Assembly: GCF_003019035.1 (NCBI RefSeq)
Contig: NZ_CP027448.1
DNA: 64,000 bases
Direction: 5' to 3' (one strand)
Source: Escherichia coli
GTDB taxonomy: Bacteria > Pseudomonadota > Gammaproteobacteria > Enterobacterales > Enterobacteriaceae
Below are positions 40,701 to 46,700 of this stretch, in pieces. Within the stretch, counting starts at the first letter, position 1. The number at the start of each line of letters is the position of its first letter. Position numbers: made by a program.

Positions 40701-43700
40701 AGCACATCAGTGCAGGGATAACCCAGGGCTCTGCTGGTAAACGCCAGGCAGCAGCCGTGGTTAAGATAATGTTCAACGGCAACCTGTTTTTGCTCATCGG
40801 AGTAACGGTGCTTATGACGAATGGATTCTTTTGTGCCACCACCTGCTTCCCATGAGCGGATCCAACGCCGCAGATTTCTTTTCGAAGGGTAGCCCAGTTC
40901 GCGTACGACGGGAGCCAGCTTCTTACCATATTTGAAATAAAGCTCAATGGCGCGGATTTTTTCTTCTTCAGTAAACATGTTTTATCTCCTGAGAGTCCAG
41001 GAAATCGTCCGCAGCCCCGTACACACTGAATAATTATTATCCAGAATGTGAGGGCTTGATACACACCCTCACGACTTTTATGCTTTTCAGATTGTGTTCC
41101 ATCCGTTTTACAGACTCAGAAAATGAACGACAGATTACGCTTTGAAGTGAACGATAACCAGGGGCGTTTCGTATTTCCGGATACCTGGTTTGGCCCATTA
41201 CTGGGAGAGTTTGAAGAACTGCTTGATACATGCGATACTGATGAAATCAGTGAGACGAGTTACATCAACAAACTCAGACGTCTTGCTCAACGGGAGCCTG
41301 ACTTTATTGATATACACGCACATCTGGCATACGCATTTCTGGAACAGGGCACCCCGCGTAAAGCGTTGAACGCCGCTCTTAAAGGGCTGTCAGCTGGTAA
41401 TCGTCTCATCCCTGAAGGTTTCGGTGGCAGAATCATCTGGACACACCCGGACAACCGGCCTTATCTGCGCGTGTTTTATGCAGCAATCCTGGCAAATGTA
41501 CATTTACAACGTCATCAGGATGCCATCATGCTCATTGAGAAAATACTGGCATACAACCTGAAGATAATCAGGGTACTCGCTGGTTGTTGGGTTCAGAACT
41601 GTTACGAACAGGTGATCATGAGCGAGCTTTCCGTGTACTGAATGAGTACGCTGATGAATTTTCACCTTACTGGTATGAACTCGGCCTTCTGCATTTTCTT
41701 AATGGGGAACTGGTAAAAGCTGCAACTGCATTTCGTCGTGGCTTTGCGGCAAATACTTACATCGCAGAAATACTGTGCGAAAATCTGCATCCATTTCCTC
41801 TTGCGATATGGTATGACTTTTCAGGCGGTCCGGATATTGCTGAAGATTATTATGCAACATATCACCCATTATGGAGAGAACATCCGGAAGTATTGCTGTT
41901 TATAAACTGGCTATACAATCATTCCTCTGTACTATGTGAACGGGCAGAAATAATTAAATGCGCAGAAATGATGATGCAGGAAGATGATTTCGAAATATGC
42001 GAAAATATTTTCAAACAACAGGACGAATTACGGAAAAGAATCGATGATAGACTTTCAGAGGAAATTATACAAAAATGCAGGAATATGAAGGGGGAATATG
42101 TCTGGCCCTGGATACTTCCGTTTTCAGTCGGGATAAAGCATACAAATATTCGGTATCAGTAGATATTACGTCAGAGCACTCTACATACAAATAACGCGCA
42201 AGTCTGTCAATAATCCCCCCAGACTGACCGTCTGATGGGGGAGATGGATTAAGTACCAGGGAAAAGATAACAAAGTAAACTACTCCTGATTCTCATTTAA
42301 AAGTTTTCGTAATACTTTATAGCCTGGATTAAACCTCCCCCCCCCCCGATAGCGGTGAATCGCCTCTCCTTTCTATTACAATCAATGATTAGAATTCTTT
42401 ATATAAAACCAGCATAATCTTTATGCGGATTTATTTAATCACGTCTTAACGTAATTTCCGGCCATTCCGGCAGATACACTGGCTATTGACAACACCATAA
42501 TTTTATGTATTTTAGATACAGGATTAAGCATGGACGTAAGTATGTTATGAAAAAGGAATATCTCTACAGTATTTCTGCTGTTATTTTCTGTATCTTACTC
42601 GGATTTGGTCTTATTATTATCAATAATGGAACTCCTTCTCCCCTTTCACCCGGACAGTACCACATTATAACACAATCAACTTATTTAATGATGATGGTGG
42701 CTTTATTTTTTATAGATATCATTGCTTTCCTCTTTATGCAACTTTATTTTATTTATGACCGAAATAACTTTTCGCATTGTATTCTTGGGCTGGCTTTCTT
42801 CAGTTGTATTATATATCTTGTTCTGACAATAATAATTGTTCAACAATACGAAAGTGATACTGTATCTGTAGTAAGCATACATAATTCAATCATGGTCCAT
42901 TATTTCTTCAGACAACTGAGCTTTTGCCTGATTATATATCTGGCATTGTGTGCCAGAAACCGAAGAAAAAACACCGCAATGATTGCCGGTAATAAAACGA
43001 TTTTTTTGATTTGTTTTGCCTGTATGATAATACTACCTGTAATATCATATCTGATTAGCCATCAATACTTCTTCCCGGGTATAACTGAAACTGCTTTATA
43101 CAAATTTGATTTTGTCCATATTGAAACATACATTAAATTTATTGTTTTTTTATGGCTGGGACTGGTTTTTTCGCTTTTTTATACCAGAGCGGTAAACAAT
43201 GATATATGGAAGGGGATATTACTGATTGCCATCTCGGCTGTTTTTTATAATGTTTTCGTTTTGTTTATTGTTGACGGGTATATGCATCTCTGGTATCTCA
43301 GCCGAATGGTAGAAATGTTCAGTAAATTAATTGTTGTTTCTGCTTTTATATATCACATATTTAAAGTTCTGCAATCAACAAAACAATTAAGCAACCTCGA
43401 CCCAATGACAAAAACATATAACAGAAATTTTTTCTTTGAAAAAATAAACGAACTTCTCTCAACAGGAGAAACATATTCGTCCGGTGTCTTTATTATTGAT
43501 ATCGATCACTTTAAATCAGTTAATGATACATGGGGACATCCTGCTGGTGACAGAGTCATTCTGGCTGTTGTCGATATATTAAAACAAGGCATCCGCGCAA
43601 CAGATATTCTGTCACGTCTCGGAGGAGAAGAGTTTGGCATTATTATTAATAATATGAATCCATCAAGAATAAAAATATTAGCGGAAAGACTTCGCAGACA

Positions 43701-46700
43701 TGTCGAAACCCAGACAAATAATACAACACTCTACAATATTCCTGGTGGGGTCACCATTAGTATTGGCGTTACTCTGATACGAGATAAATCACTTAACGCA
43801 TCTGATATCTATAATGCTACTGATAATGCCTTATATAAAGCGAAATCATCCGGGCGTAATAAAGTTGCCTTTTCAGAGATGGCATAAGTCATACATTACA
43901 GGTATTCAACAGAATGTCAGTAACAGAACATATAATTTCTCATTCTTTATTTTCAGATTTACTTTCTGAGTTTCTGGCTGTCATCTGGTCACTGACCTCT
44001 CAGGAAAAGAGAGGTCTTACAAAAGACGGACAGACCTCATTTCTGCAACTATGAAAAAAGCTGCACATTACGCTGACAATCTACCAGACGGAGCGGTTCA
44101 ACAGGGAAGAATCTATGGTCACCCCCGTTTTTGCGTAACCGTCTCATTTAAACCGTCTTTCACCTCCCTTTCCTGTTTCCGATACTAATGTCCCGCAGTA
44201 AAAGGACATTTAAGATGAATGCACGAAAGGCGGTACTGGCAGATAATCCGGAATTGATCCTGCGTGTGCTACAACTGAGATTTGACGAGTCACTGTCGTA
44301 CCCGCGCATTTCTGCGCAGACCGGTGTCAGCAAAACCGCCATTTTTTCTCTGGTGAGGCGATTTCACCAGATATTCGCTGACTGGCCCCTTTCCGGTGAA
44401 TCTTCCTGCATGCAACTGGCCCGGGCTCTTTTCCCGGGGCGATACCCTTCAGCCCCGACAGTAACTCAGACTGTGAAAACAGAGAAAAACCGCCGGAACC
44501 GATTTTCACAGGAGTTTAAATGGAGACTTGTTCAGCAGACTCTTTTACCCGGTGCCTGTGTCGCACAAATAGCTCGCGAGAACGGAATCAACGATAACCT
44601 GCTCTTTAACTGGCGGCATCTCTGGCGTAACGGCGGCCTGCAGCCGCCCGGCGAACATGAAACATCGCTACTTCCCGTGACGTTAACGCCGGAGCCGGAT
44701 AATAAAATCCCGGCACCAGTGCAGATACCTGAACAGATAAATACACTGCCAGACAGTCTGTGCTACGAGCTGGTTCTGCCGGCCGGAACTCTCAGGCTGA
44801 AAGGTGAACTGACACCGGCGTTATTACAGACACTTATCCGCGAAATGAAAGGGAGCAGCCACTGATGATATCTCTCCCTGCCGGTTCGCGTATCTGGCTG
44901 GTTGCCGGTATCACCGATATGCGAAATGGCTTTAACGGCCTGGCCTCAAAAGTTCAGAACGTCCTGAAGGATGACCCGTTCTCCGGGCATCTGTTCATCT
45001 TCCGCGGACGCCGGGGTGACCAGATAAAAGTGCTGTGGGCTGACAGTGACGGACTGTGCCTCTTCACCAAACGCCTGGAGCGGGGCCGCTTCGTCTGGCC
45101 GGTCACCCGCGATGGAAAGGTTCACCTTACTCCGGCTCAGTTATCTATGCTTCCTGAAGGTATCAACTGGAAGCACCCGAAACGAACAGAACGCGCTGGA
45201 ATCCGTATATAACCCGTTGTAAAGTGAGGATATGGACACCTCACTTGCTCATGAGAATGCCCGCCTGCGGGCACTGTTGCAGACGCAACAGGACACCATC
45301 CGCCAGATGGCCGAATATAACCGCCTGCTCTCACTGCGGGTGGCGGCTTATGCTTCCGAAATCAACCGGCTGAAGGCGCTGGTTGCAAAACTGCAGCGCA
45401 TGCAGTTCGGTAAAAGCTCAGAAAAACTTCGCGCAAAAACCGAACGACAGATACAGGAAGCACAGGAGCGAATCAGCGCACTTCAGGAAGAAATGGCGGA
45501 AACGCTGGGTGAGCAATATGACTCGGCACTGCCATCTGCACTGCGCCAGTCTTCAGCCCGTAAACCGTTACCGCCTCACTTCCCCGAGAAACCCGGGTTA
45601 TCCGGCCGGAAGAGGAATGCTGTCCTGCCTGTGGTGGCGAACTCAGTTCTCTGGGATGTGATGTGTCAGAGCAACTGGAGCTTATCAGCAGCGCCTTTAA
45701 GGTTATCGAAACACAACGTCCGAAACTGGCCTGTTGCCGTTGTGACCATATCGTGCAGGCGCCGGTGCCTTCAAAACCCATTGTACGCAGCTATGCCGGA
45801 GCGGGGCTTCTGGCCCATGTTGTCACCGGGAAATATGCAGACCATTTGCCGTTATACCGCCAGTCAGAAATATACCGTCGTCAGGGAGTGGAGCTGAGTC
45901 GTGCCACGCTGGGGCGCTGGACTGGTGCCGTTGCTGAACTACTGGAGCCACTGTATGACGTCCTGCGCCAGTATGTGCTGATGCCCGGTAAAGTCCATGC
46001 CGATGATATCCCCGTCCCGGTCCAGGAGCCGGGCAGCGGTAAAACCCGGACAGCCCGGCTGTGGGTCTACGTCCGTGATGACCGTAACGCCGGTTCACAG
46101 ATGCCTGCGGCGGTCTGGTTCGCGTACAGCCCGAACCGGAAAGGCATCCATCCACAAAATCACCTGGCCGGTTACAGCGGAGTGCTTCAGGCCGATGCTT
46201 ACGGTGGCTACCGGGCGTTATACGAATCCGGCAGAATAACGGAAGCCGCGTGTATGGCTCATGCCCGGAGAAAAATCCACGATGTGCATGCAAGAGCTCC
46301 AACCGATATCACCACGGAAGCCCTGCAGCGTATCGGTGAACTGTATGCCATCGAGGCAGAAGTCCGGGGATGTTCAGCAGAACAGCGTCTGGCGGCAAGA
46401 AAAGCCAGAGCTGCGCCACTGATGCAGTCACTGTATGACTGGATACAGACTCAGATGAAAACACTGTCGCGTCACTCGGATACGGCAAAAGCGTTCGCAT
46501 ACCTGCTGAAACAGTGGGATGGCCTGAACGTGTACTGCAGTAATGGCTGGGTGGAAATCGACAACAACATCGCAGAGAACGCCTTACGGGGAGTGGCCGT
46601 AGGCCGGAAAAACTGGCTCTTCGCGGGTTCCGACAGCGGTGGCGAACATGCGGCGGTGTTGTACTCGCTGATCGGCACATGCCGTCTGAACAATGTGGAG

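Follow-up and report, generated by a model that had tools for sequence, protein, structure and literature searches.

What does an uninterrupted run of 11 cytosines do upstream of a diguanylate cyclase gene on an Escherichia coli plasmid? The run (C11) and the gene lie in a 64-kb stretch of contig NZ_CP027448.1 (the whole stretch of DNA that was analyzed, hereafter the window), which is a mosaic ruminant E. coli virulence plasmid. An earlier note on the window had suggested that the run might modulate expression of the cyclase by slippage or else mark a junction. The reading that we consider probable, while holding it with some reserve, is that an intact cyclase with its own promoter was acquired from a genomic island and captured between insertion sequences (ISs), and that C11 was born by point mutation and slips in length without functional effect. 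The argument turns on four features of the spacer and gene:

42214–42242, + strand: stable hairpin C6-AGAC/GTCT-GA-G5, about 52 nt after the stop codon of the upstream TPR-protein gene; the C6 run at 42214–42219 forms its 5′ arm
42337–42347: C11 homopolymer, uninterrupted and derived, the ancestral state being the C-rich 11-mer CCGCCCCACCC; varies in length within the plasmid clade
42486–42513, + strand: sigma-70-like promoter candidate, TTGACA-16-TATTTT (10/12 matches), the sole promoter-like site in the scan
42547–43887, + strand: diguanylate cyclase gene, 446 amino acids (aa), MASE4 plus GGDEF; start taken from the annotation of relatives and alignment to the DgcT N terminus

Length variation of the poly-C run

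The tract reported in the earlier note is present and contains exactly 11 Cs. No other homopolymer longer than 8 nt occurs in the window, in which 0.007 C or G runs of at least 11 nt would be expected from base composition, and in the E. coli DNA that we examined, which totals 415 kb, all C/G runs of at least 9 nt fall at this same site. According to a review, 93% of the mononucleotide repeats of E. coli K-12 are A/T (PMC7015867). The tract is unusual for E. coli, as had been claimed.

The proposal that recombination or insertion in the mobile region left a junction at the tract draws on the facts that homopolymers are sometimes found at element ends and that the region is IS rich. However, the island copies align continuously across the tract, and its flanks are kept on both sides in every copy. 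The island-derived fragment really ends at 41018/41019 (1.3 kb from the tract) and at 44111/44112 (1.8 kb). A junction at this site is hardly conceivable, and we rejected it.

We gathered 55 copies of the site and placed 53 of them on a single-nucleotide polymorphism (SNP) tree of 2.13 kb from which the tract had been masked. The alleles were distributed on the tree as follows:

Two island clades (21 copies, up to ~50 SNPs): CCGCCCCACCC in 20, a single C lost in one
Sheep-farm plasmids and the P0123 variant (17 copies): CCG+C6 or CCG+C7, with one C6/C7 pair at 0 SNPs
P0125 variant (6 copies, 0–2 SNPs): CCG+C8, C8, C9, C10, C11, and C12
Window/p35A2a clade (9 copies, two sublineages 9–10 SNPs apart): pure C11 in 8, C10 in 1

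On this tree the uninterrupted run is confined to the plasmid clade, for which at least eight length changes are inferred, and five tract lengths are found in six contigs separated by only 0–2 SNPs. A metagenome scan yielded two further copies, one with CCG+C7 and the other with the interrupted form. Control runs on the same contigs were almost constant: T7 in 46/46 and 42/42 copies at its two sites, G5 in 44/44, and T6 in 45/46. A C6 run 120 bp upstream of the tract was C7 in 2 of 43 copies (contigs L034 and L036). The repeat is thus uninterrupted and long enough to slip (C11 in the window and C6 to C12 in its relatives), and its length varies in close relatives above background. Because tract lengths vary in near-identical copies while the control runs are essentially fixed, these results support the idea, put forward in the earlier note, that the tract changes length by replication slippage, with a range of C6 to C12 in nature. 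An invariant tract would have told against that note; the length varies across the plasmid clade as a whole, whereas in the window's own lineage it is nearly constant.

It is quite improbable that these differences reflect sequencing or assembly error at a hard-to-read homopolymer. Long G/C runs are prone to such error, contig L030 terminates beside the tract, and the two contigs that read C7 for C6 at the upstream run also have long main tracts, L036 being a low-coverage metagenome contig. On the other hand, independent assemblies of the window's lineage give C11 in 10 of 11 cases, short-read contigs and hybrid complete plasmids agree on C6, the T7 and G5 controls do not vary, and of the five P0123-variant copies with C7, four are on a plasmid backbone (with Rep3 downstream) that differs from that of the C6 copies. 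The backbone split between C7 and C6 copies and the recurrence of C11 make assembly noise, in particular, an unlikely explanation.

Two observations concern individual contigs. The main tracts of L034 and L036 are C12 and C11, respectively, and the C7 at their upstream run could reflect a mutator background or sequencing quality. The short-read contig L030 (GCA_012533815.1, DABBAS010000064.1) stops a few bases from the tract, which suggests that the tract can break assemblies.

We propose that the present tract arose in three steps. An A-to-C change in the plasmid ancestor would have joined the run of the ancestral 11-mer to give CCG+C8, slippage of the uninterrupted run would then have produced lengths from C6 to C12, and in the lineage of the window a G-to-C change would have created C11, which is the same length as the ancestral 11-mer. 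The tract provides a well-documented natural example of how one or two substitutions can make a stable sequence hypermutable.

The run and expression of the cyclase

The promoter candidate begins 139 bp downstream of the tract, in agreement with the distance of about 140 bp given in the earlier note. The cyclase is most likely transcribed from this sigma-70-type promoter of its own, which lies 61 nt ahead of the start codon; TTGACA is found at the same 61-nt offset before the ATG at L020, the locus of a 56%-identical homologue, upstream of which the C-rich element is absent. The promoter scan found no promoter-like site overlapping the tract on either strand, and its surroundings yielded no second promoter, operator, or regulator site. 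No open reading frame (ORF) of at least 40 aa covers the tract on either strand, which rules out a coding frameshift switch. The tract is therefore in no such reading frame, and it lies neither within a −35/−10 spacer nor between mapped operators. Given its non-coding nature and its distance from the core promoter, a simple on/off switch is unlikely.

Analysis of RNA structure did not implicate the tract either. There were no Rfam matches at E ≤ 1 over 41000–44300, and an inverted-repeat search returned nothing involving the tract. A fold that pairs the tract with G5AG at 42238 was seen in the minimum free energy structure, and we rejected it as no better than the folds of shuffled sequences (z = −0.76 for the window allele, −0.64 for the ancestral allele, and −1.27 for the whole spacer). 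The only structure that stood out was the hairpin following the TPR stop codon (z = −2.3); it has no U-tract and so is not a typical intrinsic terminator.

Length changes of 1–6 bp could nevertheless shift an upstream operator (or an UP-like element) relative to the promoter, in distance or in helical phase, so that the tract would act as a rheostat or contingency element and a plasmid-bearing population would hold cells that differ in their output of cyclic dimeric guanosine monophosphate (c-di-GMP). The length polymorphism in near-identical copies and the restriction of the uninterrupted run to the plasmid clade are consistent with this, as is a weak −10 candidate, TAGAAT at 42390–42395, which we noticed by eye, outside the scan matches, 43 bp downstream of the tract. 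There are also precedents outside the −35/−10 spacer: as at meningococcal nadA (PMC2791445) and Helicobacter pylori sabA (PMC4081817), a slippage-prone non-coding repeat whose length depends on the strain stands upstream of a surface- or biofilm-related gene. In those two systems, however, the repeat either is flanked by mapped operators or directly adjoins the −35 box, and changes in expression were measured, whereas the tract described here is 139 bp from the −35 box and is known from sequence data. With no operator, regulator site, or second promoter detected nearby, with the AraC-type regulator of the island missing from the window, with 139 bp separating the tract from the sole scored promoter, and with C11 constant over both sublineages of the window's clade, unlike the behavior of classic contingency loci, we think that such a rheostat is unlikely, though it deserves consideration. 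E. coli is not known to depend on homopolymer switches, and an effect of tract length on expression, if true, would be a rare instance in this species of tuning by a homopolymer. A broader proposal is that the poly-C run has newly become a contingency locus: two point mutations after the move from island to plasmid would have made a stable C-rich 11-mer slip, and the slipping tract, by way of distal spacing or Rho loading, would now adjust transcription of the cyclase and thereby c-di-GMP and the adhesion or biofilm state cell by cell in plasmid-bearing populations; this we consider rather unlikely.

The tract might instead be a Rho-loading (rut-like) site that halts read-through from the TPR gene before it reaches the cyclase, if the two are co-transcribed, with longer C runs giving stronger insulation. 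Poly(C) is the strongest known ligand of Rho, and the single C-rich, G-poor part of the spacer (42280–42400; ~32% C and 14% G, with 18–21 YC dimers per 78 nt) is centered on the tract. In line with this, the hairpin after the TPR stop codon lacks the U-tract of a typical intrinsic terminator. Against this, the proposal is purely inferential and presupposes transcription of the spacer, the cyclase has a promoter-like site of its own, Rho sites usually extend over 60–80 nt, and the ancestral interrupted sequence is nearly as C rich. A role in Rho loading is very improbable.

Our preferred view is that the tract is hypermutable yet neutral in function, most probably a by-product and not a means of switching the cyclase. 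Its position suggests this: the tract is non-coding, remote from the −35 box, and part of no supported RNA structure. Several points weigh against this interpretation. The case for neutrality is a purely positional one, and the persistence of a run as long as C11 is unusual in E. coli. The weak TAGAAT, if taken as an alternative −10 element, would put the tract near −55 to −65, and distal repeat tracts of the nadA type can act through operator spacing (PMC2791445). Two further points concern the cyclase itself: its dN/dS relative to the other copies is 0.35–0.7 (from small counts), indicating weak to moderate constraint, and the gene is frameshifted in one genome, so that activity in every host is not assured.

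The cyclase and its MASE4-GGDEF relatives

The longest reading frame for the cyclase is 42505–43887. We took the start codon to be at 42547, on the basis of the RefSeq annotation of relatives and an end-to-end alignment with DgcT. The encoded protein has the following parts:

42670–43368, + strand: MASE4 integral-membrane sensor domain, residues 42–274 (from Pfam and hydropathy)
43393–43863, + strand: GGDEF catalytic domain, residues 283–439 (from Pfam)
43594–43635, + strand: I-site RATD (43594–43605), five intervening residues, and A-site GGEEF (43621–43635), read from the sequence

The MASE4 domain matched PF17158 with 118 bits (cut-off 28.4), and hydropathy analysis placed seven or eight membrane segments in the N-terminal 275 residues. 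The GGDEF domain matched PF00990 with 148.9 bits (cut-off 23.8) and TIGR00254 with 144 bits. Its A-site, GGEEF (residues 359–363), is intact, and the RxxD motif of the I-site is RATD (residues 350–353), five residues ahead of GGEEF. The DIDHF sequence (the DxD metal site), the guanine contacts N326 and D335, and the C-terminal K and R in YKAKSSGRN all align with the solved cyclases 3IGN and WspR. The description of the product as a polytopic-membrane GGDEF protein with an intact GGEEF motif is thus well supported by Pfam, hydropathy, and the alignment of catalytic residues. The protein carries every sequence feature of an active, product-inhibited diguanylate cyclase, from which we infer that it would make c-di-GMP under I-site feedback while MASE4 senses an unspecified signal.

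One chromosomal copy (L008, NZ_CM143727.1) has an extra T in a T6 run, at the equivalent of ~43427, that separates the MASE4 and GGDEF ORFs. As this copy is split, the cyclase is decaying in at least one host.

The cyclase is 41% identical to DgcT of E. coli K-12 and 33% identical to DgcX of the enteroaggregative E. coli (EAEC) strain 55989; these values, together with the different genomic contexts, rule out identity with either protein. Its 90% cluster comprises 467 sequences; beyond it, identity drops to 56% for the next relative, which points to a separate MASE4-GGDEF lineage. To judge from the comparisons with DgcT and DgcX, the cyclase represents a fourth such lineage in E. coli, beside these two and CdgI. 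Other E. coli matches at 40%–45% identity were DgcT orthologues adjoining pgaA and were set aside as relatives, as was P0034 as a relative of the locus, its chromosomal context being unrelated.

The cyclase resembles DgcT (YcdT) in having the MASE4-GGDEF arrangement over its full length (446 versus 452 aa), with GGEEF and RxxD in both proteins and N termini that can be aligned from residue 1. In contrast to DgcT, which is encoded beside pgaABCD (pga/csg), it is carried on a mobile island or plasmid, and a TPR gene and a C-rich spacer lie upstream of it, neither of which is found at dgcT. DgcX, a horizontally transferred MASE4-GGDEF cyclase of EAEC/O104:H4 (PMC4287979; PMC10459773), is likewise an accessory cyclase with intact A- and I-sites, one that a minority of strains carry on mobile DNA. 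We found dgcX of EAEC 55989 between prophage tail genes and ybhB, in agreement with Richter et al. (PMC4287979). Whereas DgcX is encoded beside lambdoid prophages at attB, the cyclase described here is on a tRNA-linked island and on IS-bounded plasmid fragments, and the region upstream of dgcX, unlike that of the cyclase, has no C tract.

Literature searches (on DgcY/PdeT and on plasmid-borne E. coli cyclases) returned nothing on this gene, which may already be named in a catalogue that the searches did not cover; it is an uncharacterized addition to a known family. DgcX was the accessory cyclase that altered biofilm and adhesion behavior in the outbreak strain O104:H4, and it provides a precedent for the resetting of these properties in pathogenic E. 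coli by accessory cyclases (PMC4287979). The present cyclase is rare, and it is found on conjugative plasmids with autotransporter adhesins, a serine-protease autotransporter, and F4-like fimbriae.

Island origin, insertion sequences, and plasmid cargo

A 1.75-kb stretch containing the cyclase was found in only 9 complete E. coli genomes out of 5,426. It is also found on 31 plasmids, which are mostly conjugative IncF plasmids from UK sheep and cattle farms and include plasmids of E. fergusonii. Most of the chromosomal copies are within an island adjoining tRNA-Sec or tRNA-Phe, in which the gene order is integrase, AraC-type regulator, TPR protein, cyclase, EcsC, hypothetical protein, MFS transporter, and phosphoethanolamine transferase. 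The corresponding part of the window is arranged as follows:

39446–41018, − strand: IS3-family element at the left edge of the fragment (approximate coordinates, mapped from the p35A2a annotation)
41019–44111: island-derived fragment of 3.1 kb, 96.7% identical to chromosomal copies of the island that integrates at tRNA-Sec or tRNA-Phe
41123–42162, + strand: TPR-protein gene, which precedes the cyclase in every case in the island family; a 1-bp deletion after 41556 makes it a pseudogene here
44112–46911, + strand: IS66-family element at the right edge, with tnpA (44188–44865), tnpB (44865–45212), and a frameshifted tnpC (45232–46802)

This arrangement suggests that the cyclase began in a genomic island integrating at tRNA-Sec or tRNA-Phe, and that a 3.1-kb piece with the TPR and cyclase genes was later trapped between IS3 and IS66 on conjugative plasmids that would now be carried by farm-animal E. 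coli and E. fergusonii. The IS3 element stands in place of the island's AraC-type regulator gene. The latter is absent from the window, where the closest sequence is a 37% paralogue at 29.9–30.2 kb. This match lies in an AraC-family ORF (29835–30569, − strand) whose C-terminal half is 37% identical to the island regulator; the ORF encodes a different regulator, possibly linked to the adhesin genes of the plasmid.

The base missing from the TPR gene is a single T that is kept in 10/10 other aligned copies, at a site outside any homopolymer. The deletion is common to all four contigs (L022–L025) that encode the window's exact cyclase protein and reach the site, and its presence in every such contig indicates that it is a real mutation of the lineage. 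IS3 insertions upstream of the cyclase vary among the sheep-farm plasmids. At the right edge, tnpC is split into two overlapping ORFs, with an identical frameshift in the p35A2a annotation, so that this copy of IS66 has probably lost its activity. One record (L017, CP057032.1) is a circular, 62-kb, non-mobilizable plasmid that contains the whole island (integrase, group II intron, AraC, TPR, cyclase, EcsC, MFS, and phosphoethanolamine transferase); it could represent an excised or plasmid-borne form of the island.

The earlier note had paired the cyclase with a PdeL-like degenerate EAL protein as c-di-GMP signaling parts of a single element. The EAL protein and the other cargo genes are at these positions:

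7867–10080, + strand: catalase-peroxidase
17570–18637, + strand: LuxR(GerE)-EAL protein, 355 aa, with substituted catalytic residues; a separate plasmid module, 24 kb from the cyclase
20892–25609, − strand: AIDA/TibA-type autotransporter adhesin and adjoining TibC-like heptosyltransferase, a glycosylated-adhesin pair
35339–39238, − strand: S6-family serine-protease autotransporter, 1,298 aa

The LuxR-EAL protein has a GerE domain at residues 27–76 and an EAL domain at residues 118–338. It shares this layout of a GerE/LuxR helix-turn-helix followed by EAL with PdeL (YahA), a transcription factor and phosphodiesterase of E. coli K-12, and the two proteins can be aligned end to end. They are, however, only 30% identical, and catalytic positions of PdeL are replaced in the plasmid protein (EVL by DIT, ELTE by QLST, DDFG by NDFG, EGVE by DGIE, and QG by KG). 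It is thus degenerate and PdeL-like in layout, as had been described, but it is not an orthologue of PdeL. As its catalytic positions are substituted, the protein is unlikely to hydrolyze c-di-GMP.

The distribution of the two genes does not bear out the idea of an element with its own c-di-GMP parts. The LuxR-EAL allele (at least 99% identity) is on six plasmids, and p35A2a is the only one of them with the cyclase. The allele is absent from the other 30 cyclase plasmids and from the seven island genomes without a plasmid on the six-plasmid list; the island strain RM8082 has it on a plasmid of its own. The cyclase is also found by itself in chromosomal islands. The plasmids matched by the window's left third come from cattle and are absent from the set of cyclase-carrying records. 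The presence of the cyclase and the LuxR-EAL protein together in the window is mosaic co-residence, and the two do not form a self-contained c-di-GMP unit.

In the cattle strain RM8082 (NZ_CP043825.1, NZ_CP043827.1, and NZ_CP043829.1), the cyclase island is chromosomal, at tRNA-Sec, and the EAL module and an F4-like fimbrial module are on separate plasmids, indicating that the three modules found together in the window exist apart within a single cell.

F4-like fimbriae are also part of the window's plasmid cargo. The AIDA/TibA-type adhesin is a protein of 1,175 aa with ten AIDA repeats and pertactin and beta-barrel domains, and the S6 autotransporter and the catalase-peroxidase are cargo of the type found on virulence plasmids of enterohemorrhagic E. 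coli (EHEC). Records matching the window annotate a TIR-domain protein in its left third. A version of the LuxR-EAL protein with 77% identity is found on 77 other plasmids, mostly from cattle and in both E. coli and Shigella, which indicates that the protein belongs to a widespread, uncharacterized family of plasmid regulators. The GC content of the LuxR-EAL gene is 26%, and it is preceded by an ORF with a bactofilin domain (16331–16909).

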